A stretch of 64,000 nucleotides of DNA from an uncultured Planctomycetales bacterium (GCA_964572155.1 CAZNDZ010000001.1:910290-974289); one strand, 5' to 3'; positions 5,329 through 42,499 are shown, counted from the first letter of the stretch. Notes: generated from the letters alone by a model not told the origin. Program-made: numbers and translations.

Positions 5329-5361
5329 CCCACTTTTCGGAGATCAACTTGTTTTTCGCCC

Positions 5362-5380
5362 TATAGTATGTATATACTAT
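5362..5380 (+). promoter_or_regulatory. AT-rich promoter-like element with inverted repeat ATAGTAT-gtat-ATACTAT; shares TATAGTATG and TGTATATA with the paralog B upstream region
   Basis: The sequence 'ctatagtatgtatatactatggcatcATG' has a TATACT -10-like hexamer only 8 nt from the ATG and no Shine-Dalgarno. The same 8-9-mers occur at 37384..37398 upstream of paralog B. Confidence 0.4.
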
Positions 5381-5386
5381 GGCATC

Positions 5387-8383
5387 ATGCGTAAATTAGT
5401 TTTTATCATAGTTTTAGCTAGTTTTATTCTAAGCGTCTTTAATATTCCAACACTTAAAGCCAGTGAGATCGTATTACCTTCGCCTGGCACCATGGTTCAT
5501 TTAAGCCCTTCGTTTCAACCCCCAATATTAAAAGGCATTAAAGTTCATCCTGATAACCCATTTAAATTCGAATTTGTGTTGTCGCAGGGCGACAACGCAT
5601 CCGCCGTAGCTGAACACGAAAGTAATTCAGCGAAGGCGGATTTCCTTAAACAAGAATCAACAAAATTAATCAAGTATTTCCTCGCCGCCCTAACCACGCC
5701 CGAAAAAGACATGTGGGTTAATTTAAGCCCCTACGAAAAAGACCGCATTGTGCCCGACGGTTTTGGTCAAACCGAAATGGGACGTGACTTATTAGCCCAA
5801 GATTATATCCTTAAACAAATCACCGCATCCTTAGTTTATCCCGAGGGGGAGATTGGCAAAACATTTTGGAAACGCATTTATGAAGCAACCGCCAATAAGA
5901 ATGTGCCTGTAAACACCTTTAATAAAGTATGGATAGTCCCAGCAAAAGCTGTCGTGTATGAGAACCCAGCATCAGGCACTGCGTATGTGGTTGAATCGTC
6001 ACTTAAAGTGTTAACCGAGCAAGATTACCTTGCTAATACCAAAAATAACAATCAACAAAACAACAATCAAATCGTCCGAGACATCATCATCCCGCAACTC
6101 ACCAAAGAAATCAACGAAGGCAAAAACTTCGCCCAACTCCGACAAGTATACAATTCCTTAATCTTAGCGACGTGGTACAAAAAGAAGATCCGAGACAGCA
6201 TCCTTTCGCAAGTCTACGCAGATAAAAATAAAGTAGCAGGGATCAACATAGACGATCCTTTGGAAAAGCAAAAAATTTATGACCAATATTTACAAGCGTT
6301 CAAGAAGGGGGCGTATAACTTCATCAAAGTAGAGCAAGATCCTTTAACGCAACAGATGATGCCAAGGAAGTATTTTTCGGGTGGGATGCATATGAATATG
6401 GACATGATGTCAACGGTTCATGTAATGCCAAATAGCTTTACCGATTCTAATCAAGCAATGTTGGTACAAGTGAGTATTGCTCCTGAAGGAGCGCGAGTTA
6501 ATGAGGCGATAGATCAACCTAAAGACCCGAAAGTTTTAGCTTTAACAGATTCAATTAATGCATCTATTCATGAAAAAGGTATTTTGGAAATGCAATCAAT
6601 TGATTATGACGATCCTTTATATGTTCAGGTCAGAAATATTATTGCAGTTGCTAACAATCACGAGTTTCATGCTGGAGATGAATACCGTAGCGGGATGGCA
6701 GAAGCGGTTTACAGGGTTGTTCAATATTTAAAATCGAGAAATGATCTTATGAAATTAGACTTTGAGCAGATAGCGAGATTTTTATTGCTAAAAAGGGTGA
6801 TGATTGCAGGAAAATTAGCAGAAAAAGGTAATAGTGATGAAATAGATCTTATTTCAGGTGTAGGAGATAGCGACGGATGGAGGGTTAGATCGCTTGGTAG
6901 GTTTGGATCTCCTCAATCTATTTCTTTTGCTAGTTCCAAGGGGTATCCTGAACTTTATCAAAAGTTAATGCGTAAGAAAAATGAATTTGAATTATCAAAG
7001 AATGGGATATTAACTTATAGAAAAACCTATAGATTTGGAGCGACTAGAACCAAGTATGATCAAATCATTGAAGTTGATAATGATTTTCTGGAATTTAAAA
7101 TTTATCATGCTGATCCAAATTCAGTTCCTTTAATTTTGTTTCATCTGCAAGATCTCTGGACGGAGATATTAAGTAATTCTAATCTAGATAAACGTGATCG
7201 TCTAATAGCTGAAATGGAATGGTGGTTTTATCAGGCTAATCCCTATATCAGGGCTGGGGCAAGCATTGGTAATGCGCTATCTCTTATTGCACAAAGTTTA
7301 ACAGGCAAGATTTTGGATGATCATTTCGAGCACCATGACTGGGACGCTTTATCTAGCACACTCGAGGAATATATCCTTAATCGTTCAAATCAATTTCATC
7401 AATTAAGACAGATACAAGCTGCTTCAAACCCTGCAACTAAAACAGGAAAGACAGCGGACAACGCCCAATTAGCTCAAGACGCTGCCATGCATCATACAGA
7501 GAGTGTTCCTGATTTATCTCAATTTAAAGTAGGAATATCAAATGATCGTATTTCATTATTTAATCAGGGAAAAACTTATGAGTCGCTAAGCAGAGAGGGT
7601 CGAAGTCACATCTTTATATATGGAAATTATGTTATTCGAGTACGGCCTAATACCGAACAAATGTTTCTTAATCTGCAAAGCATCGTAGCCGCATTTAATT
7701 TAGGAAATCAAATTGGCATTCCAATTCCGAGTGTTAGGGCTAGTGGATATATAAATGGAGAAGATGGTAAAGTTTATTCAGCTATCGTTGTTGATCGTAT
7801 AGAGGGTTTTTCTCTTGATAGTAGTTCTATAAAAATGGTAAATCAAGAAGACAGGGTGCGATATACGGAATTATATATTGAATTATTAAGAGCGATGCTT
7901 AAAAATCATGTGGTCCTCGGTGACTGGCAAGCAGCGCAGTTTATGATTGGATATAATGTGAATGACCCTCAAAAAAATATTAAGGCTTGGCTAGTTGATC
8001 CGAAAAGCATGTATGTAGATGAGAATAAACGAAATCGAGCAATAGTGTATTATCAAAATATCTTTTCTCAGGATTTTGTAGAAGTTAATGAATATTTAGA
8101 TTTACGGCTGATTGAAGAATTTTTATTGACGGAAAGTGGAGTACACAGAAGTCGTTTCGAATCTATTCGTGATTCAGCAGCTGCGGCTCGTGGTGGGATT
8201 GATTTTAATGCTGACAAAATAAATTTAGAGACAAATGTCGGTGAGGGGATTAAGTTTCATGTTGATCCTGCCATGTTTAAACAACTTCAAGATGCCCCAG
8301 GATTTACACCGGTTATTATTGACATTCAACCCATGACGGATTTGCCAAAGTTTCTTGGGCTAAAAGTAAGCAACTTGCCTTAA
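5387..8383 (+). CDS. Giant Sec-secreted modular protein, paralog A, with conserved N- and C-terminal modules and unique central cargo; function unknown
   Basis: 998 aa. Sec signal peptide 'MRKLVFIIVLASFILSVFNIPTLKA|SE'. N-terminal ~330 aa and the last ~55 aa are highly similar to ORF 37407..41774 at both protein and nucleotide level. The middle is AT-rich and unrelated. Confidence 0.85.
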   Translation: MRKLVFIIVLASFILSVFNIPTLKASEIVLPSPGTMVHLSPSFQPPILKGIKVHPDNPFKFEFVLSQGDNASAVAEHESNSAKADFLKQESTKLIKYFLAALTTPEKDMWVNLSPYEKDRIVPDGFGQTEMGRDLLAQDYILKQITASLVYPEGEIGKTFWKRIYEATANKNVPVNTFNKVWIVPAKAVVYENPASGTAYVVESSLKVLTEQDYLANTKNNNQQNNNQIVRDIIIPQLTKEINEGKNFAQLRQVYNSLILATWYKKKIRDSILSQVYADKNKVAGINIDDPLEKQKIYDQYLQAFKKGAYNFIKVEQDPLTQQMMPRKYFSGGMHMNMDMMSTVHVMPNSFTDSNQAMLVQVSIAPEGARVNEAIDQPKDPKVLALTDSINASIHEKGILEMQSIDYDDPLYVQVRNIIAVANNHEFHAGDEYRSGMAEAVYRVVQYLKSRNDLMKLDFEQIARFLLLKRVMIAGKLAEKGNSDEIDLISGVGDSDGWRVRSLGRFGSPQSISFASSKGYPELYQKLMRKKNEFELSKNGILTYRKTYRFGATRTKYDQIIEVDNDFLEFKIYHADPNSVPLILFHLQDLWTEILSNSNLDKRDRLIAEMEWWFYQANPYIRAGASIGNALSLIAQSLTGKILDDHFEHHDWDALSSTLEEYILNRSNQFHQLRQIQAASNPATKTGKTADNAQLAQDAAMHHTESVPDLSQFKVGISNDRISLFNQGKTYESLSREGRSHIFIYGNYVIRVRPNTEQMFLNLQSIVAAFNLGNQIGIPIPSVRASGYINGEDGKVYSAIVVDRIEGFSLDSSSIKMVNQEDRVRYTELYIELLRAMLKNHVVLGDWQAAQFMIGYNVNDPQKNIKAWLVDPKSMYVDENKRNRAIVYYQNIFSQDFVEVNEYLDLRLIEEFLLTESGVHRSRFESIRDSAAAARGGIDFNADKINLETNVGEGIKFHVDPAMFKQLQDAPGFTPVIIDIQPMTDLPKFLGLKVSNLP

Positions 8384-8489: not shown

Positions 8490-8720
8490 ATGAAGTCCCA
8501 TTTAAATATTGATAAAGATTACAAAGTTTGGCTTGCAAATATCAAGGCAAGAGTCCGTAATGCTCAGATTAAAGCAGCTATTAGCGTCAATACAGAATTG
8601 TTAGAACTTTATTGGAGCTTGGGAGCGGATATTTTTAATAAACAAAGAAATGCCAAATGAGGCGAGGGATTAAAGTCAATTGGGCAACAAGTTGTTGCCC
8701 AAATTAGACAAATTCAATAG
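8490..8720 (+). pseudogene. Remnant of a DUF1016/YhcG-family (PDDEXK-like) gene: N-terminal ~75 codons only, with an in-frame TGA at the conserved Trp position
   Basis: The translation 'MKSHLNIDKDYKVWLANIKARVRNAQIKAAISVNTELLELYWSLGADIFNKQRNAK*GEGLKSIGQQVVAQIRQIQ*' aligns to the YhcG N-terminus (..RIRQAQLKAAVSVNRELILLYWHIGKDI...QGWGAKVI..). TGA at 8658..8660 sits where the conserved W is. The reading frame ends at 8718..8720, whereas full-length family members are ~350 aa. Confidence 0.6.
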
Positions 8721-8757: not shown

Positions 8758-9438
8758 TTGCTATTTTTATATTTAGATGAGTCTGGGAATTATGTTTTTA
8801 CTAAAAAGGGTTCAGAATATTTAATTTTTACGGCTTTAGCAACAAGTAATCCTTACATGTTGCAATATAGGCTTTGTGAAGTAGAGGAGAAGCTTAGAGA
8901 AAATAGTCTAATGACGGCTGAGTCCCAATACTTTCATGCTACAGAAGACAAACAGGTTGTTCGGGATGAGGTCTTTAAAGTTTTGAAAGAGTGTGATGAT
9001 TTTACAGTGGATAGTATTATTGTTGAGAAATGTAAAACGAATATAGAGTTGAGGGAAGAATCTCAATTATACAGAAAGATTTATCATGTTCTTTTGGAGT
9101 ATGTTTTTAAAAGACATCAAGACGTTGAGAAAATTATAATATTTATTCATGCCGCACCGGTTAATAAGAAAAGACATGCCTTTGAGAAAGGGATTAAAGA
9201 AACCCTAAACGGTATTTTGGATAAAGAGCGACTTGGTGGGAAAATAAAATACCACATTCAGTATCTTCCAACAATTTCTAGCTATGGATTACAGGCTGTT
9301 GATTATTGTTCATGGGCTTTAAAGAAGAAATGGGGAGAATGGGGGGAGAAGATCGACTTACGACCATATGGTTGCATTTCGAATAAGGTAAAGAGTGAGT
9401 TTGAGATATTTAAAATAGGTCAAAAGATATATTATTGA
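8758..9438 (+). CDS. DUF3800-family protein
   Basis: 226 aa, TTG start preceded by SD 'AAGGAAAGG'. N-terminal 'LFLYLDESGNYVF' matches the DUF3800 'IYIDESG' signature and C-terminal 'LQAVDYCSWAL' matches its 'QLADLIAYAI' motif. Strongly AT-rich relative to neighbours. Confidence 0.6.
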   Translation: MLFLYLDESGNYVFTKKGSEYLIFTALATSNPYMLQYRLCEVEEKLRENSLMTAESQYFHATEDKQVVRDEVFKVLKECDDFTVDSIIVEKCKTNIELREESQLYRKIYHVLLEYVFKRHQDVEKIIIFIHAAPVNKKRHAFEKGIKETLNGILDKERLGGKIKYHIQYLPTISSYGLQAVDYCSWALKKKWGEWGEKIDLRPYGCISNKVKSEFEIFKIGQKIYY

Positions 9439-28709: not shown

Positions 28710-32499
<3,790 letters not shown>

Positions 32500-37356: not shown

Positions 37357-37383
37357 AACATCCATCAAAATTGGCATTTTTAT

Positions 37384-37399
37384 TGTATATATAGTATGC
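37384..37399 (+). promoter_or_regulatory. AT-rich promoter-like element upstream of paralog B sharing TGTATATA/TATAGTATG with the paralog A upstream region
   Basis: 'ttgtatatatagtatgcttaagtaATG' has TATAGT 11 nt before the ATG and no SD. Confidence 0.4.
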
Positions 37400-37406
37400 T
37401 TAAGTA

Positions 37407-40400
37407 ATGCATAAAAGTCTTATCTACATCTTAATCGTCGCATTTGCCTGTGGAACCTTGTGCCCAAATAGGGTTTTGGCCAATGAGCTTGTTTTACCAG
37501 CGCCAGGTACAATGGTTCATTTGAGTCCTTCGGTTGATACGCCCATTTTAAAAGGCATCAAAGTACATCCCGAAAATCCTTTTAAATTCGATTTCGTCTT
37601 GTCGCAAGGTGATGCAACTTCAAACTTAAACGTAACATCAAACAAACTTGTTAAGTATTTTCTAGCCGCATTGACCACCCCAGAAAAAGACATGTGGGTT
37701 AACTTAAGCCCATATGAAAAAGACCGCATTGTCCCTGAGCATTTTGGTACAACAGAAATGGGTCGAGATCTTTTAGCCCAAGATTATTTGCTAAAACAAA
37801 TTACCGCGTCGCTGGTTTATCCTGAAGGGGAAGTGGGGCAAGCCTTCTGGAAAAAAGTCTATGCGTTATCACCGAATAAAAATATCCCTGTAAACACCTT
37901 TAACAAAGTATGGATCGTCCCTAATAAAGCCGTTGTTTATGAAAACGCCAAAGCTGGCAGCGCCTATGTGGTTGAATCATCCTTGAAAGTCATGACTGAG
38001 CAAGATTACCTTGCCGACACAAAAAATAAGAGCACATCAACTAATAATCAAGTTGTGCGCGATATTGTCATCCCACAACTCACCAAAGAAGTCAACGAAG
38101 GCAGCAACTTTGCGCAACTGCGACAAGTATACAATTCCTTAATCTTAGCGACGTGGTACAAGAAAAAGATCAAAGACAGCATCCTGTCACAAGTATACGC
38201 CGATAAAAATAAAGTAGCCGGCGTAAATATCGAAGACCCCCAAGAAAAGCAAAAAATCTATCAGCGTTACCTTGAAGCGTTCAAGAAGGGGGCCTACAAC
38301 TACATCAAAGAAGAGCAAGACCCTGTAACGCATCAAATCATTCCTAAGAAATATTTTTCTGGTGGGATAAGCGCAACAAATTTTAGTAATCAAGCTATGA
38401 CGGTAACAACAGATCCTTCCAATATTCAAAAAGGAATGAATGGTGATAATTTAAAAATTGTATCTGTGTCTATAGACAGGGCGCAAATTGTTCCCATTGT
38501 CCCAATTGCTTCAGTTAATGTTAATGAAGGTGTGACGAATAAATGGCTTGGTAATCATTTGGATCAAATAGATATGTTTCAAGCTTTTGAAATTCTCAAC
38601 GAAGAACATCCTGAATTTAAAAAATTAGAAGAACAAGAAAATAAGATTCTTGTTATCGGGGGAACAGTAGAAGAAGTTAATTTCTTAATTCGGCGATATC
38701 CAAAATCAAGCATTACGGTAGTCAGCTTAAATGAATCTGATTTAAGAGGCTTGCAAGCGTTTGAAAGTAATATGGGAGTAGGAAAAATTAATGGTTTATT
38801 TCTAGGCGATGTCAGAGATTTGACAGCAAGAGAAATTCCTGATGATTCTTTTGATATTGTTTTCTCTCATGGGATAGATTCTTCGACTTTCTTAAGTGAG
38901 GTTGATGCTACGAAAGTATTACAAGGAATAGCATCTCAAGAAATGCGCATGCTTAAAGCGGGTGGCCTTTTATATCATCCTTATATAGGGGATAAAAATG
39001 CTTTAAAGCAATATTATTCGCAACAGTCTGAAGCTGGTTCTCTAAAAGAACTTAAATCAGGTAAAGAGTACCCAGAATTCTTTGTTAAAAGTATGCAGGG
39101 TTCAACTCAATTAAGTAAACAAATATTTGATAGGGCACAAGCATCAAAGAAATTAGTTGTTACAAATCGGGCTAAGGAAATTTTGAGAGAAGTATTTGAT
39201 ATTGGACCGGGTGTTTGGGTGAAAATCCGCGATCTGAGAAAGGGTGAGATTGCTGTTCAGAGAGGTTTATCTGGTTCAGAGCATGAAGGGGATTATATTG
39301 GAGATGGTATTTCTGAAGCATTGAATATATTAAATGGAAAGGTAGATCTCGAAAAACGGTCATACAGTCGAAATGATTTGGATGAATTAACATATGCAGT
39401 AACAAGTCATTATGCTTTACCTTTTGCAATGCGATTTGCTGTTGATGACAAAATTGATCCAGAGATAGGTTTGAGCGAAGAACATATTTATTTGAAAGGT
39501 ATGAATCCTGAAAATTTACTTCAAGTTGCTTTGATTCCTAATCGATCACAGGCTTATTATTGGGCTAGACGGTATCTTAGCTTAATAGAGGATTTAGGTA
39601 TTAAGTTCCGACCTAATAGCAACGGTAAAGTTTTTTCTGATAGCGTTAAAGAGATTATGAAAGAGATAGAGTTCGGAAAGAAGACAGCTTATGGAAGACC
39701 AATAAAAAATTCAGATTATATCAATTCGAAGTTAAGTGCATTATTTGAAAAGTATGAAGCGCCATCCCAGCAGGTTGTTAATTTTATCAGCTCTGGTGCA
39801 ATGATTTCAGAACGTAATATGAACGTGGCGGATAATGCACAAGCATCGTCTGAGGGTAAAATGTTTGGAAGCGTTGAATACCAAGCAATGAAGAATGAAA
39901 AAGATATATCGGTTTCAGTGAAGGACGGTCAACTTATTCTTGAGGGAAAAGAAGGGGTTTATAAAATGCCGTTTTTTGATTCTAAGGATGTTCAAATAGG
40001 AAAACGCATAGGTCAACGAGATGAAAATTCTAATATGGGGTATAGAAAGATCGTTTTCAAAAACAGTGTAGAATTTTTGGGGTATATGCCAGAATTAGGT
40101 AGTTTAACAGCGTTGGAAAGTTTTCTTAAAACACTGAGCATAGTACATACAAACCCTCAGGCTGAGGCTGCATTACCAAGGATTTATGGAGCTTATTATA
40201 ATGATAGAAATGAAATTGAATTAATCGTTGATAAATTTGATTTGCCTCATCCAGACTCTAATTATTTAACAAAAGATGCATCAGTTGAGGTTTTAGATAA
40301 TACATCACAAATACTTTCTGATGGTGTGTTGGCCAGTATTGTATTAAATGGTCTTAATTTAAGCAAAGTGTTCGAAGTTGATTATACGTTTATTGAAGCA

Positions 40401-41774
40401 AATGGACATTTGAGATTTTCATTTCCTGTTAGAACTATCCAATGGATGGAAGAAGTTGGCAGAGGTAAGATTTTTAGAGTCGAGAAGGAGTACCCCTCAC
40501 TAGATTTTGATGCAATCTTGGATGTGCAATATATGATTAAGGAGGGATACCTTCGAGAAGTTATTTCTTATAAAGCCATATTTGCATCGTTTGTAAGAAG
40601 CGCATTTTCTAGATTGATAGCATTTGATCAATCATTACCAAAGATATATTTGATGAGTGGGTATGCTTTGAATGATCTTGTCAGCAATTTGCGTTTTAGA
40701 TTTCTACGGAGAATGATTAACGAATATGGTTTCAAAGCAGTAATCAAAATACAAAACCAACTACATCTCAACGATCCTCGCTTAGAGCGTATTATTTTAG
40801 AAAGAATACACCAACAGTCAAATAATCTTCGTTGGATATTCGAAGTAGAAACAGATCTGGGAGAGTTTATATTTAAGACAGATAGAGATTTGCCATGGGA
40901 CAAAAGAGTAAGATTGGCTTTGAAAATGAAGTTAAAAGATTTTCAATTAAAAACGAATACAGGATTTGATTTTAAAAGTACATATGAAAGTCTATATCAG
41001 GACTTTGTTAAAGAGTCAGGCATTTCAAATCAATCCATGAGCTCTAATCTAAACGGAGCTAAAATATCTAGAAGAGGAATAATTGCTGGTGCGGTTGGTT
41101 TGGGTTTGGCGAGAGTGTTACCTAAGGCTTCTGCGCAACCAGTGAACATTGAGTCAGTGAGAATAATAAACCCTAAAACTTCTTTTGGATATTCTATATT
41201 TGAATGGGATGCGATGAAAGAAGAGGAAAATCTTAGAATAAGTTTGAAAGCTGCAGACGCGCTTGCACAGATATATTTAATGAAAGATCCAAGATCTAAG
41301 TTGTCTGATTTTCTTGAGGTGGCAAAGAATGCTGCATCTGATGAAGATAGAAATACAATGCGATGGGTGTTTCATGTGCTTGATAAACGGGGGGATAGTT
41401 GGACAGATAAAATTAATTGGGATAATAAAGCGGATGTGGATGCGCAGTTTAAGCGAGTCTATGATGACGGGTCTAATGAGCTGAGAAAGTCGGCAAATAT
41501 AGCATTAGGAAAGTATTGGTCGCCGGAATTATTAAAAGCGGTTTTGGCAAAAGATAAGGCTATGAACGTAGATACGAATCAGGATCTTGGTGGTATTGAT
41601 TTTAATGCTGATAAAATGAAGTTAGAGCTTCAGAATTCTGGAGATAGCATTAAGTTTCAGATGGATGCGGCAGAGCTTAAGCAATTGCAGGATGCGTCTG
41701 GGTTTACGCCGGTTATTGTGAATATTCAACCAATGACGGATTTGAAATTGTTTTTGGGTTTGTCTCAAAAATAA
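37407..41774 (+). CDS. Giant Sec-secreted modular protein, paralog B, with conserved N- and C-terminal modules and unique central cargo including a class-I methyltransferase-like segment
   Basis: 1455 aa. Signal peptide 'MHKSLIYILIVAFACGTLCPNRVLA|NE'. The N-terminal ~300 aa after the signal and the C-terminal ~55 aa are highly similar to ORF 5387..8383. The middle is AT-rich and unique. Confidence 0.85.
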   Translation: MHKSLIYILIVAFACGTLCPNRVLANELVLPAPGTMVHLSPSVDTPILKGIKVHPENPFKFDFVLSQGDATSNLNVTSNKLVKYFLAALTTPEKDMWVNLSPYEKDRIVPEHFGTTEMGRDLLAQDYLLKQITASLVYPEGEVGQAFWKKVYALSPNKNIPVNTFNKVWIVPNKAVVYENAKAGSAYVVESSLKVMTEQDYLADTKNKSTSTNNQVVRDIVIPQLTKEVNEGSNFAQLRQVYNSLILATWYKKKIKDSILSQVYADKNKVAGVNIEDPQEKQKIYQRYLEAFKKGAYNYIKEEQDPVTHQIIPKKYFSGGISATNFSNQAMTVTTDPSNIQKGMNGDNLKIVSVSIDRAQIVPIVPIASVNVNEGVTNKWLGNHLDQIDMFQAFEILNEEHPEFKKLEEQENKILVIGGTVEEVNFLIRRYPKSSITVVSLNESDLRGLQAFESNMGVGKINGLFLGDVRDLTAREIPDDSFDIVFSHGIDSSTFLSEVDATKVLQGIASQEMRMLKAGGLLYHPYIGDKNALKQYYSQQSEAGSLKELKSGKEYPEFFVKSMQGSTQLSKQIFDRAQASKKLVVTNRAKEILREVFDIGPGVWVKIRDLRKGEIAVQRGLSGSEHEGDYIGDGISEALNILNGKVDLEKRSYSRNDLDELTYAVTSHYALPFAMRFAVDDKIDPEIGLSEEHIYLKGMNPENLLQVALIPNRSQAYYWARRYLSLIEDLGIKFRPNSNGKVFSDSVKEIMKEIEFGKKTAYGRPIKNSDYINSKLSALFEKYEAPSQQVVNFISSGAMISERNMNVADNAQASSEGKMFGSVEYQAMKNEKDISVSVKDGQLILEGKEGVYKMPFFDSKDVQIGKRIGQRDENSNMGYRKIVFKNSVEFLGYMPELGSLTALESFLKTLSIVHTNPQAEAALPRIYGAYYNDRNEIELIVDKFDLPHPDSNYLTKDASVEVLDNTSQILSDGVLASIVLNGLNLSKVFEVDYTFIEANGHLRFSFPVRTIQWMEEVGRGKIFRVEKEYPSLDFDAILDVQYMIKEGYLREVISYKAIFASFVRSAFSRLIAFDQSLPKIYLMSGYALNDLVSNLRFRFLRRMINEYGFKAVIKIQNQLHLNDPRLERIILERIHQQSNNLRWIFEVETDLGEFIFKTDRDLPWDKRVRLALKMKLKDFQLKTNTGFDFKSTYESLYQDFVKESGISNQSMSSNLNGAKISRRGIIAGAVGLGLARVLPKASAQPVNIESVRIINPKTSFGYSIFEWDAMKEEENLRISLKAADALAQIYLMKDPRSKLSDFLEVAKNAASDEDRNTMRWVFHVLDKRGDSWTDKINWDNKADVDAQFKRVYDDGSNELRKSANIALGKYWSPELLKAVLAKDKAMNVDTNQDLGGIDFNADKMKLELQNSGDSIKFQMDAAELKQLQDASGFTPVIVNIQPMTDLKLFLGLSQK

Positions 41775-41807: not shown

Positions 41808-42197
41808 ATGAAATCAACTACTAAGACTTGGATAGCTTTAGCAAAGAATGATTTATCCTTAGCTAAAGAGTTGGTTAAGAAGAAGGGGCGGTATCATTAT
41901 TGTGTTCACTTTTGTCATCAATCTTTAGAAAAGATGTTGAAGGCTATTATTAGCGAACGAACAAGATTGTTGCCATTACCGACACATAATTTTAAGACGT
42001 TGTTGGATCAAAGTGGGTTAAAAGATATTCCTGAAGATATTAAGATTTTCTTGTATGGGATGATACCTAATTATATAGGAACAAAATACCCTGAAGATAT
42101 TATGAAGCTTTATAAGAAGTATAATAAAATTTATGCTGATGGGGTTTTAAAGAGAACGGTTGAGGTTGTAAAATGGTTAGAAAAATTAGCGAGATAA
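41808..42197 (+). CDS. HEPN-domain protein (toxin-like component of a HEPN/MNT pair)
   Basis: 'CVHFCHQSLEKMLKAIISERTRLLPLPTHNFKTLL' (R-x6-H) and 'MIPNYIGTKYPED' match the HEPN (PF05168-type) consensus '..AEKALKA....THDL..LL...YYIEARYPD'. Confidence 0.75.
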   Translation: MKSTTKTWIALAKNDLSLAKELVKKKGRYHYCVHFCHQSLEKMLKAIISERTRLLPLPTHNFKTLLDQSGLKDIPEDIKIFLYGMIPNYIGTKYPEDIMKLYKKYNKIYADGVLKRTVEVVKWLEKLAR

Positions 42198-42499
42198 AGA
42201 GAATATTGGCCGAATATAAGGCTGAGTTAAAGACGCATGGCGTGCGCGTTTCTAAGATGTATTTATATGGCTCTTACGCAAATGGGAATCCAAAGTCTTA
42301 TAGTGATATTGATGTGGTGGTAATCTCGTCAGATTTGGCTAAGTATCCTGCATTAAAGCGTCAAGAGGTGTTGTCACAATGGACTATTCCAGTCAATGCG
42401 CCTTTAGAAGTAATTGGGTACACACCAAAAGAATTTAGTTTGGCTAAAGGAACAATTTTTGGCCAAATTCTAAATCAAACTGCAATATCGTTAAATTAA
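42173..42499 (+). CDS. Minimal nucleotidyltransferase (MNT) domain protein (antitoxin-like partner)
   Basis: 'MYLYGSYANGNPKSYSDIDVVVI' is the G-S-x9-D-x-D nucleotidyltransferase motif; overlaps the HEPN gene by 25 nt. Confidence 0.75.
   Translation: MVRKISEIKRILAEYKAELKTHGVRVSKMYLYGSYANGNPKSYSDIDVVVISSDLAKYPALKRQEVLSQWTIPVNAPLEVIGYTPKEFSLAKGTIFGQILNQTAISLN

Follow-up and report, generated by a model that had tools for sequence, protein, structure and literature searches.

A phylum-wide family of Omnitrophota proteins with predicted Sec signals, conserved ends and exchangeable cargo that looks like a new way to package effectors for delivery to other cells

In the MARTX toxins of Vibrio and its relatives, conserved ends flank a strain-variable, shuffled array of effectors that are freed by proteolysis between the domains. 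AvrB-like modules are known from the type III effectors of plant pathogens. The Omnitrophota are a widespread, uncultured, ultra-small (nanobacterial) phylum, thought to be predators or parasites of other microbes; ideas on how they act on their partners have been confined to speculation about their giant genes. The giant Omnitrophota proteins described as 'Archaeovorins' (West-Roberts et al., 2023 preprint) are 10-100 kaa long with many transmembrane helices, carry SecA-like and C39 or S8 peptidase domains, adjoin a type II-like secretion locus and have been suggested to be processed into smaller polypeptides (10.1101/2023.11.21.568195).

Two much smaller proteins are encoded by ORF A (5387..8383, + strand, 998 amino acids) and ORF B (37407..41774, + strand, 1455 amino acids) of the 64,000-nucleotide stretch analysed here (the window), with coordinates and lengths as first annotated. 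Their N-terminal 334 amino acids are 72% identical (BLASTP, E 1e-162) and their last 58 are 71% identical (E 2e-20), with no significant BLASTP similarity between these two modules, so that the conserved ends and unrelated middle described in the first-pass annotation are borne out by alignment. The features of both are collected in Table 1. The term 'giant' used there is too strong for proteins of 1-1.5 kaa when the phylum has others of 10-100 kaa, and the two-member family is one only within the window, where tblastn with each module finds two copies, A and B; a wider search for further copies, which had been proposed, found at least 6 paralogs on the same 1,344,502-bp contig and at least 4,539 matching proteins in public data.

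Table 1. Features of ORF A and ORF B, in positions of the window (arrow, predicted cleavage site)
Feature	Position	Strand	Basis
ORF A signal peptide, aa 1-25 (MRKLVFIIVLASFILSVFNIPTLKA then cut before SE)	5387..5461	+	basic n-region, hydrophobic core, SPase-I-like site LKA↓SE
ORF A N-module, aa 26-333, last residues the invariant YFSGG	5462..6385	+	
ORF A linker motif NQAM, aa 355-358, instance of [DN]-x-A-[MQ]	6449..6460	+	motif enrichment
ORF A cargo module 1, putative AvrB/XopAH-like Fido domain, aa 405-672	6599..7402	+	Pfam AvrB_AvrC, P0127 homology, PDB profile
ORF A double linker motif DNAQLAQDAAM, aa 691-701	7457..7489	+	separates the two BLAST-defined cargo modules
ORF A cargo module 2, aa 724-927, recurrent, probably protein-kinase-like	7556..8167	+	weak PDB profile matches
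ORF A C-module, aa 936-992, GGIDFNADK...GIKFHVDPAM...PGFTPVIIDIQPMTDLPKFLGL	8192..8362	+	71% identity to B C-module
ORF A 6-aa tail and stop codon after C-module	8363..8383	+	
ORF B signal peptide, aa 1-25, ...NRVLA↓NE	37407..37481	+	SPase-I type site
ORF B N-module, aa 26-320, YFSGG end	37482..38366	+	BLASTP/tblastn likeness to A
ORF B linker motif NQAM	38388..38399	+	
ORF B cargo module, aa 353-550, possibly Rossmann-type methyltransferase-like (weak)	38463..39056	+	weak CbiT match; common to P0230
ORF B DRAQ motifs flanking cargo module	38475..38486 and 39129..39140	+	
ORF B linker motif DNAQ, aa 809-812	39831..39842	+	
ORF B internal twin-arginine (Tat)-like signal, aa 1221-1243, SRRGIIAGAVGLGLARVLPKASA	41067..41135	+	regex and hydrophobicity scan
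ORF B linker motif DKAM	41553..41564	+	
ORF B C-module, aa 1395-1452	41589..41762	+	BLASTP likeness to A

Both proteins begin with a predicted cleavable Sec signal peptide, as first annotated, with a basic n-region, a hydrophobic core and an SPase-I type site; these calls are based on hydrophobicity and on the residues at the cleavage site. They recur throughout the family: of 103 homologs whose start is intact, 99 have a strongly hydrophobic 10-mer, 89 an Ala at -1 and 81 an Ala or Val at -3, and the cleavage region has the family-wide pattern P-x-A-x-A↓Q-[DE]-[FL]-x-LPxPG. The N-module that follows is about 310 amino acids long and ends in an invariant YFSGG, while the C-module, of about 60 amino acids with the pattern GGIDL...GIKFHxDPAM...PGFxPVIINIxP...FLGL, lies at the very C-terminus. 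The N-module is predicted to adopt a mixed alpha/beta fold with long helices; its confident model has no fold match in the PDB, and the module has no invariant Cys or His. A full-length AF2 model of ORF A, built from an alignment of whole family proteins and meant to show how the N- and C-modules pack, was poor (pLDDT 51.5). Profile searches of Pfam, NCBIfam, PADLOC and PHROGs, together with comparison to solved structures, found no family or relative for either module, in agreement with the first-pass annotation, and no description of the protein family was found in the literature. By these searches the family is undescribed and its two conserved modules are without known relatives.

All taxonomically informative record names among the matches are Omnitrophota, and it is from these homologs that the window is assigned to the phylum. 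In the GTDB species representatives the matching stretches number at least 590, with several to a MAG, and the C-module matches 5,209 cluster representatives (50% identity), being C-terminal in every match listed and ending all 119 of the other full-length matches listed. The two modules share an ORF in 56 of the 69 complete ORFs taken from other genomes, so the conserved-ends, swapped-middle architecture noticed in A and B is general. Family proteins range from 762 to 3,138 amino acids, and strongly hydrophobic segments beyond the signal peptide were found in 9 of 176 members only. On this distribution the family is ancient and phylum-wide in Omnitrophota, and ORF A belongs to a set of at least six paralogs in its genome and of thousands across the phylum.

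The AT-richness of the middle, also remarked on at the outset, is confirmed: taken together, signal peptide and N-module have a GC content of 0.41, the C-modules have one of 0.38-0.41 and the cargo stays at 0.35-0.36. Most of this contrast lies at third codon positions, with GC3 at 0.44 in the N-module against 0.26 in the cargo; the 16 other genes of the window stand at 0.41 +/- 0.03, and the same bias of N-module over cargo is seen in 52 of 56 family members elsewhere. A and B are 75% identical over 934 nucleotides of the N-module region, with pS 0.65, dS about 1.5 (saturated) and dN/dS 0.12. Another paralog pair, in one MAG, has N-modules that are 91% identical in protein sequence and yet a pS of 0.67, with the similarity ending exactly at YFSGG. 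This pattern of substitution indicates that the N-module is under extreme purifying selection. Since synonymous sites are saturated, the duplication that gave rise to A and B was not recent and gene conversion is excluded, including GC-biased conversion as the source of the conserved, GC3-richer ends.

The cargo modules are bounded by a short linker motif, [DN]-x-A-[M/Q], which occurs 476 times outside the N-module of family proteins where 62 would be expected, a 7.7-fold enrichment. Its first instance lies at a median of 8 amino acids past YFSGG, and the motif lies at a median of 13 ahead of the C-module; ORF A has 5 instances and ORF B 6, each against 0.7 expected, and none was found in the housekeeping ORFs of the window. 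The wobble positions of the motif and the bases upstream show little conservation, which argues that selection acts on the peptide; this low information content and the lack of a Shine-Dalgarno-like signal also led us to reject a DNA recombination site or an internal translation start. Phase variation through poly-G at the FSGG junction, suggested by a run at one locus (L001), was likewise rejected, as only 4 of 86 scored junctions have six or more Gs and the runs in the window genes are interrupted. A regex and hydrophobicity scan of 176 members found 14 internal Tat-like signals in 13 of them, mostly 2-12 amino acids past the M or Q that closes a linker motif; these could be relics of captured genes.

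Similarity of any kind between cargo regions is seen in only 110 of 13,366 protein pairs (0.8%), and single cargo modules recur across members in differing combinations. The first cargo module of ORF A has a Pfam AvrB_AvrC match of 23.8 bits (gathering cut-off 23.2) that covers 55 residues only, and a weak NCBIfam match to XopAH (score 21, cut-off 220). It is homologous in pairwise comparison to three tandem modules of family member P0127 (E down to 2e-29), which itself matches AvrB_AvrC at 6.5e-18 (65.5 bits), and with a four-sequence profile of the module AvrB chains are the only significant PDB matches (best E 9e-5). Only about 70 residues align with AvrB, over the WW...R-G/A-S region of the degenerate Fic motif, whose opening His (HWW) is Glu in ORF A (EWW). 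Together these matches suggest an AvrB-like Fido module. The second cargo module recurs in two copies each in family members P0122 and P0134 and has no Pfam match; with a five-sequence profile, VRK Ser/Thr kinases make up nine of its ten best PDB matches, the alignments running from hinge to catalytic loop, and the module is probably protein-kinase-like, at E values (0.2-0.8) that are not statistically significant. The cargo module of ORF B, common to family member P0230 (E 9e-12), may be a Rossmann-type methyltransferase-like domain, to judge from a weak NCBIfam match to CbiT (E 0.1). A search that apparently covered proteins no longer than about 1.75 times the query found no free-standing homologs of the ORF A cargo.

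Elsewhere in the family, Pfam identifies Pkinase, PPDK_N, SAM methyltransferases, HATPase_c, GGDEF, GNAT, PRK, HEAT and AvrB_AvrC domains as cargo, as well as a GDSL lipase; further matches carry precomputed Pfam accessions that we take to be those of NUDIX, HAD, guanylate kinase, PGK, PP2C, Glyco_hydro_26 and Peptidase_M48. The identifiable cargo thus appears to consist mostly of cytoplasmic-type enzymes and regulators that use ATP, SAM, acetyl-CoA or GTP, a description that fits the annotated minority only, since most cargo has no recognisable domain.

The genes are scattered amid housekeeping genes. No conserved neighbour, immunity or transporter gene was found in the window or across 80 family loci, where the most recurrent neighbour families reach at most 5 loci and are all housekeeping, and no secretion-system genes lie in the window or adjoin family genes elsewhere. 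With no conserved partner gene, the family genes appear to be stand-alone units. A viral origin was rejected on finding the N-module in only 3 of 2.9 million viral contigs and no PHROGs match, and an origin in defence systems on finding no PADLOC match.

The reading to which we lean, at somewhat short of an even chance, is that family members are polyproteins exported by Sec that carry several effectors between constant handles for delivery. The N- and C-modules would be read by a conserved envelope machine, which would explain why the ends are frozen while the cargo varies freely, and this machine would carry the protein out of the periplasm, either onto the cell surface or into an attached cell, host or prey. 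The linker motifs would be processing sites at which cargo modules are freed as separate effectors, some of them beginning with a ready-made Tat signal that could be used in the cytoplasm of a prokaryotic target; ORF A would then carry as payload an AvrB-like Fido enzyme along with a module that is probably kinase-like. All three elements of this scheme are ones that we infer: secretion past the periplasm, cutting at the linker motif and a target cell. A more specific version, in which the polyprotein takes a new delivery route across the outer membrane into an attached prokaryote, is cut at [DN]-x-A↓[M/Q] and has some of its effectors re-exported by the victim's own Tat system, is conceivable though unlikely. 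A counterpoint to the argument from cargo is that ATP- and SAM-dependent domains are also present in the giant Omnitrophota proteins, which others read as envelope-associated.

The proteins might instead be scaffolds for the producer's own envelope, with N- and C-modules that anchor to its outer membrane, peptidoglycan or surface layer and cargo that is displayed for adhesion or surface remodelling, with no delivery at all. The Sec signal is in keeping with such a role, and the extreme conservation of the N-module would suit the binding of an invariant envelope component; some of the cargo is also extracytoplasmic in type, namely the GDSL lipase found by Pfam and the presumed Glyco_hydro_26 and Peptidase_M48 domains. 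The giant Omnitrophota proteins, whose set of domains is similar, have been read as proteins of the surface or of attachment (10.1101/2023.11.21.568195). We nevertheless consider display decidedly unlikely: most of the identifiable cargo needs cofactors (ATP, SAM, acetyl-CoA or GTP) that are unavailable outside a cytoplasm, Pfam and NCBIfam reveal no known anchoring domain or motif, hydrophobic segments past the signal peptide are as rare as noted above, and the boundary motif and internal Tat-like signals would be left unexplained.

It is quite improbable that the proteins serve their producer within the periplasm, the N-module being a shared functional or chaperone-like domain fused to accessory domains in a lineage-specific expansion with no intercellular role. 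Nucleotide-dependent enzymes are not expected to work there, the AvrB-like module is otherwise known from plant-pathogen type III effectors, and the cargo, which hardly any two members have in common (0.8% of pairs) and which is atypical in composition (GC3 0.26 against 0.41), looks like an arms-race or accessory repertoire rather than core physiology. These points outweigh, in our judgement, a Sec signal unaccompanied by any further secretion signal in Pfam or NCBIfam, the dispersal of the genes among housekeeping genes and the purifying selection on the conserved modules, all of which a periplasmic role would fit.

The first-pass annotation likened the architecture to polymorphic effector or toxin systems, and with cargo that includes kinases, methyltransferases and an AvrB-like Fido module, the effector half of that comparison remains reasonable. 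A classical polymorphic toxin with its immunity protein, used in competition between related bacteria, is very improbable, because the variation sits in the middle of the protein, with a conserved module after it at the C-terminus, and because no conserved downstream gene is seen in the 80 loci; the DUF3800 gene and HEPN/MNT pair downstream of A and B are not shared immunity candidates, and the identifiable cargo is mostly of no known toxin type. What the family does have of such systems is a payload that is hypervariable between conserved, trafficking-like ends, with a short boundary motif that calls to mind the VENN-type pre-toxin motifs of CdiA, and on one contig a MafB19-like deaminase ORF lies 3' of an N-module ORF. 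That A and B are a recently duplicated pair with ends homogenised by gene conversion, as the first-pass annotation had suggested from their nucleotide similarity, can be given almost no credence in view of the saturated synonymous sites, the equally saturated independent pair and the age and spread of the family; in its favour are the 75% nucleotide identity over the N-module and the fact that A and B are slightly closer to each other (72%) than to the other homologs listed (at most 69%).

If delivery of effector polyproteins is the right reading, the family may be the standard payload format of Omnitrophota, with thousands of members and several in each small genome; the N- and C-modules could then be used as search keys for effectors, the linker motif would be a candidate cleavage site and the Tat-like signals a readout of the target compartment. 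The more specific delivery route, if true, would be a self-contained, cassette-based effector platform in Omnitrophota, unrelated to secretion types I-XI. Should delivery prove wrong, a major candidate phylum would still have in this family a large uncharacterised part of its envelope biology, and the two conserved domains merit family models and structures in any case.

The family belongs to none of the known systems with which it was compared. AvrB/XopAH effectors reach plant cells by type III secretion and have a known enzymatic activity on RIN4; AvrB, AvrC and XopAH differ from the first cargo module of ORF A in setting, since the latter lies in an apparently Sec-exported polyprotein of a non-proteobacterial phylum, with no type III context. 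Type Va autotransporters have a C-terminal beta-barrel of about 250-300 amino acids, whereas the C-module has about 60 and matches no autotransporter family. The predicted mixed alpha/beta N-module, which has no Haemagg_act match and no conserved neighbour, is likewise unlike the TpsA proteins of two-partner secretion, which have an N-terminal TPS beta-helix domain and an adjoining gene for a TpsB transporter. Type IX cargo is closer in plan, with an N-terminal Sec signal and a small conserved C-terminal domain on very diverse proteins, but Pfam and NCBIfam give the C-module no match to the T9SS C-terminal domain; T9SS is moreover a system of the Bacteroidota group, and its cargo has no conserved 310-amino-acid N-module. 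The family shares with CdiA, Rhs and MafB a constant part with a hypervariable payload, a short junction motif and many paralogs or variants per lineage; it is set apart by a payload that is internal and multi-modular, the C-module occupying the extreme C-terminus, by the lack of an adjoining immunity gene at the 80 loci and by an N-module with no TPS, LXG, PAAR or Rhs match in Pfam or NCBIfam and no fold match in the PDB.

The Archaeovorin giants belong to the same phylum and, by their published list, overlap with the family in HEAT, HATPase_c, PPDK_N and GGDEF domains (10.1101/2023.11.21.568195). Their description sets them apart from a family of 0.8-3.1 kaa proteins with rare hydrophobic segments and no conserved neighbours, and no SecA-like, C39 or S8 domains were found in A or B (Pfam, NCBIfam), whose neighbours are housekeeping genes; the family also has N- and C-modules of its own, the giants being compared by their published description only. 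The overlap in repertoire presumably extends to NUDIX and HAD, if we read the family accessions rightly.

With MARTX there is no sequence or fold relationship. The conserved ends of MARTX toxins carry glycine-rich A/B/C repeats, RTX nonapeptide repeats among them, and a cysteine protease domain activated by inositol hexakisphosphate frees their effectors. The family modules have no RTX, HemolysinCabind or other match at E <= 1 in Pfam or NCBIfam, GGIDFNADK does not fit the repeat pattern GGxGxDxUx, and neither a cysteine protease domain nor any peptidase family is found in A or B with the same databases. MARTX is a type I system, with an uncleaved C-terminal signal, no Sec signal peptide and adjoining ABC/MFP genes, while the family has a conserved, cleavable Sec-type signal, no C-terminal type I signal and no adjoining transporter genes; at 310 + 60 amino acids the constant regions of the family are far shorter, and phylum and likely targets differ. 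The likeness to MARTX is one of architecture, a central array of unrelated, modularly shuffled domains between conserved ends, and it is found across the family.

The two large ORFs, A and B, were found as the first-pass annotation had described them, each with a conserved head that follows the signal peptide and closes in YFSGG (the N-module, about 310 aa), a conserved tail of about 60 aa that opens with GGIDL or GGIDF (the C-module), and between these a set of variable modules referred to here as cargo. In pairwise BLASTP the proteins share 72% identity over residues 1-334 (E 1e-162) and 71% over the final 58 residues (E 2e-20), and no significant similarity between the two aligned blocks. 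Both carry the Sec signal peptide that had been claimed, with a basic n-region, a hydrophobic core and an SPase-I-like site (between LKA and SE in A, between VLA and NE in B). Of 103 homologs whose start is intact, 99 contain a 10-mer of strong hydrophobicity and 97 a K or R in the n-region, position -1 is Ala in 89 and position -3 is Ala or Val in 81; the consensus runs P-x-A-x-A up to the site and Q-[DE]-[FL]-x-LPxPG beyond it. The middles are indeed AT-richer (GC 0.35-0.36, against 0.41), mainly at third codon positions, where GC3 is 0.26 in the cargo of A and B, 0.44 in their N-modules and, for comparison, 0.41 +/- 0.03 over 16 further window genes; in other genomes, too, cargo GC3 lies below that of the N-module in 52 of 56 members.

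A and B are far from being the two-member family originally proposed. No third copy of either module was found when each was compared with the whole window by tblastn, but a search with the full protein gave at least 4,539 proteins (1,399 with the N-module by itself), and at least 590 stretches were confirmed in a pattern scan that took a single genome for each GTDB species; there are several per MAG, and at least eight loci in one of these. A and B are database proteins P0121 and P0124, and we take four further members, P0146, P0173, P0180 and P0224, to lie on the same 1,344,502-bp contig. Every meaningfully labelled source name among the N-module matches and in the GTDB scan is Omnitrophota or Omnitrophica, apart from generic 'uncultured Planctomycetales' labels and a single partial 'Minisyncoccia' record. 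Among 2.9 million viral contigs, just 3 encode the N-module. Four near-identical members (P0191, P0195, P0229 and P0231) are distinguished solely by how many copies they have of a tandem cargo repeat of about 55 aa, which indicates length variation at the strain level.

At loci from other genomes the two constant modules lie in one reading frame in 56 of 69 complete ORFs (762-3,138 aa), and in the exceptions inspected a frame change splits the ORF and the C-module lies in an adjacent frame. The C-module forms the terminus of all 119 other full-length database matches listed; a profile of it found 5,209 cluster representatives out of 1.84 billion, again at the extreme C-terminus in every match listed, the longer ones mostly bearing an N-module and the short ones resembling contig-edge fragments. 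N- and C-module identities co-vary between members (Mantel r 0.64; none of 300 permutations reached this value). The C-module search also found a 'mini' member of 176 aa (P0333), in which a signal peptide and the first 90 or so N-module residues are followed by DKAQ and a complete C-module, and which looks like a natural deletion of the cargo and most of the N-module. At one locus (L001, 7890..7980) eight consecutive G at the FSGG codons cause a frameshift, and a 347-aa ORF holding the N-module is called on its own, immediately ahead of its cargo. Removing one G makes the ORF continuous again; a sequencing error, a pseudogene or a phase switch confined to this locus could each account for the run. 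Phase variation through poly-G at this junction was rejected as a general mechanism of the family.

The nucleotide similarity of A and B had been taken to suggest recent duplication or gene conversion. The N-modules are 75% identical at the nucleotide level, but with pS 0.65, dS about 1.5 and dN/dS 0.12 this identity reflects extreme constraint on the protein, not recency, and the likelihood of a recent duplication is low. An independent pair of paralogs from one MAG (JABDGZ01; L010, 2362..5868, and L023, 9920..14143) shows the pattern even more clearly: the N-modules are 91% identical, with saturated synonymous sites (pS 0.67) and pN 0.078, and the similarity ends precisely at YFSGG, beyond which the cargo is unrelated. 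Three residues of the N-module, S114, K143 and K180, are invariant; that they might form a Ser-Lys protease is speculative.

The cargo modules are bounded by a short motif, [DN]-x-A-[M/Q], of which 120 proteins contain 476 instances outside the N-module, where shuffling predicts 62. A has five instances and B six (0.7 expected in each), while the 46 remaining window ORFs together contain 11, with 8.1 expected. Past YFSGG, the first instance follows after a median of 8 residues, and the last precedes GGIDL by a median of 13, with others falling between cargo modules; one copy (DPAM) lies inside the C-module itself. In the DNA, there is little information at the wobble positions or in the bases upstream, so the motif is selected as a peptide, and a recombination site or an internal start was rejected. 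Thirteen of 176 members, B among them, contain, deep within the protein, a twin-arginine motif that leads into a hydrophobic stretch, mostly 2-12 residues past the M or Q of the boundary motif (as in DEAM-TSRRSLLLGAG and DLAM-KAKTSRRDFL), so that cleavage ahead of the M would yield a normal-looking Tat signal peptide. These junctions are the strongest hint that the motif may be a processing site; the internal signals might also be left over from genes that were captured whole.

The cargo itself is highly diverse, only 110 of 13,366 protein pairs sharing cargo similarity of any kind, and is identified in part. In ORF A, module 1 (aa 405-672) is probably an AvrB-like Fido domain: it scores barely over the curated cut-off for Pfam AvrB_AvrC, is homologous to three tandem modules of P0127, which matches that Pfam family at 6.5e-18, and as a four-sequence profile against the PDB finds AvrB chains as its only significant matches (best E 9e-5). 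Module 2 (aa 724-927), present in two copies each in P0122 and P0134, is probably kinase-like; its profile ranks VRK protein kinases first in the PDB, aligned from the hinge to the catalytic loop, at non-significant E values of 0.2-0.8. ORF B has a weak methyltransferase-like module in common with P0230, the rest of its cargo being without a match. Fifty cargos of other members contain 75 Pfam families, including PPDK_N, Pkinase, HEAT, several SAM methyltransferases, HATPase_c, GGDEF, GNAT, Kdo kinase, PRK and GDSL lipase. The precomputed Pfam accessions of the full-protein matches include what we take to be NUDIX, HAD, PolyA_pol, PGK, guanylate kinase, aminotransferase, PP2C, CheR, response regulator, GT1, GH26 and M48. 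The cargo domains recognised in these ways overlap with those published for giant proteins of Omnitrophota (10.1101/2023.11.21.568195).

Features of the two family genes and their surroundings in the window
Feature	Position (nt)	Strand	Size or place	Remarks
ORF A	5387..8383	+	998 aa	neighbours: UvrD-like helicase, PD-(D/E)XK nuclease, response regulator, DUF3800 gene, YggS-like gene
Terminator-like hairpin	8680..8702	-	between ORF A and DUF3800 gene	
DUF3800 gene	8758..9438		375 nt downstream of ORF A	TTG start; low-GC stretch, about 0.33
608-aa ORF	30673..32499	-	608 aa	overlaps start of next plus-strand ORF
ORF B	37407..41774	+	1455 aa	neighbours: 2-oxoacid:ferredoxin oxidoreductase, thioredoxin reductase-like, HEPN/MNT pair
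Tat-like signal in Sec-exported ORF B	41067..41135	+	aa 1221-1243	twin-arginine motif and hydrophobic stretch
HEPN domain gene and overlapping minimal nucleotidyltransferase gene	41808..42499		34 nt downstream of ORF B	typical toxin-antitoxin pair; AT-rich, GC about 0.31-0.35

Both genes lie among housekeeping genes, of which the window also consists elsewhere, as far as sampled. The 608-aa ORF is the sole minus-strand ORF of at least 150 aa that is not contained in a plus-strand ORF; Pfam gives nothing for it at E <= 1e-6. On the JGI contig of P0029 an N-module ORF is followed head to tail by ORFs of 886 aa (dCMP/cytidine and MafB19-like deaminase domains) and 1,471 aa, and then, on the opposite strand, by a SurA/Rotamase_2 PPIase gene; a Rotamase_2 PPIase is likewise reported beside the giant Omnitrophota genes (10.1101/2023.11.21.568195). 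Upstream regions were scanned for the family genes of L003-L082 and for A and B (5360..5386 and 37371..37406). A -10-like hexamer ends 4-10 nt ahead of the ATG in 26 of 87 family genes (exactly 6 nt in 13), with TTG or TGGCA 15-26 nt farther upstream in 21 of the 26, and just 9 of the 87 have a Shine-Dalgarno core; among other window ORFs, 2 of 49 have the hexamer and 17 of 49 the Shine-Dalgarno core. The hexamers close to the ATG and the rarity of Shine-Dalgarno cores suggest leaderless, individually promoted transcripts.

We tentatively read the family as effector polyproteins, in which the constant modules would serve a conserved envelope machine as handles, the protein would leave the periplasm, the boundary motif would be cut and the cargo would act inside another cell. 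Most domains recognised in the cargo require cofactors confined to the cytoplasm. We consider a scaffold for surface display unlikely, and periplasmic proteins for the producer's own use more improbable still. A classical toxin-immunity system has a low probability: partner genes are absent, and clustering every ORF that lies up to 4 kb from a family gene gave no neighbour family recurring in more than 5 of 80 loci.

The family sequences are public, under source names that, where seen, are 'hypothetical protein' or automatic annotation unrelated to the conserved modules; no description of the family was found in the searchable literature, nor a model for it in four HMM libraries. The defining features of polymorphic toxins, two-partner secretion, autotransporters and T9SS cargo were looked for in the family and were absent. 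MARTX toxins have conserved ends, a central shuffled effector array and proteolytic release. They are the nearest analogy in logic; of their defining features the effector array is present, while all others tested are lacking. That the family marks a categorically new delivery route is rather doubtful, the concept of constant delivery parts around a variable payload being already known; what is new is the N- and C-modules themselves, the boundary motif and the Sec-dependent context.
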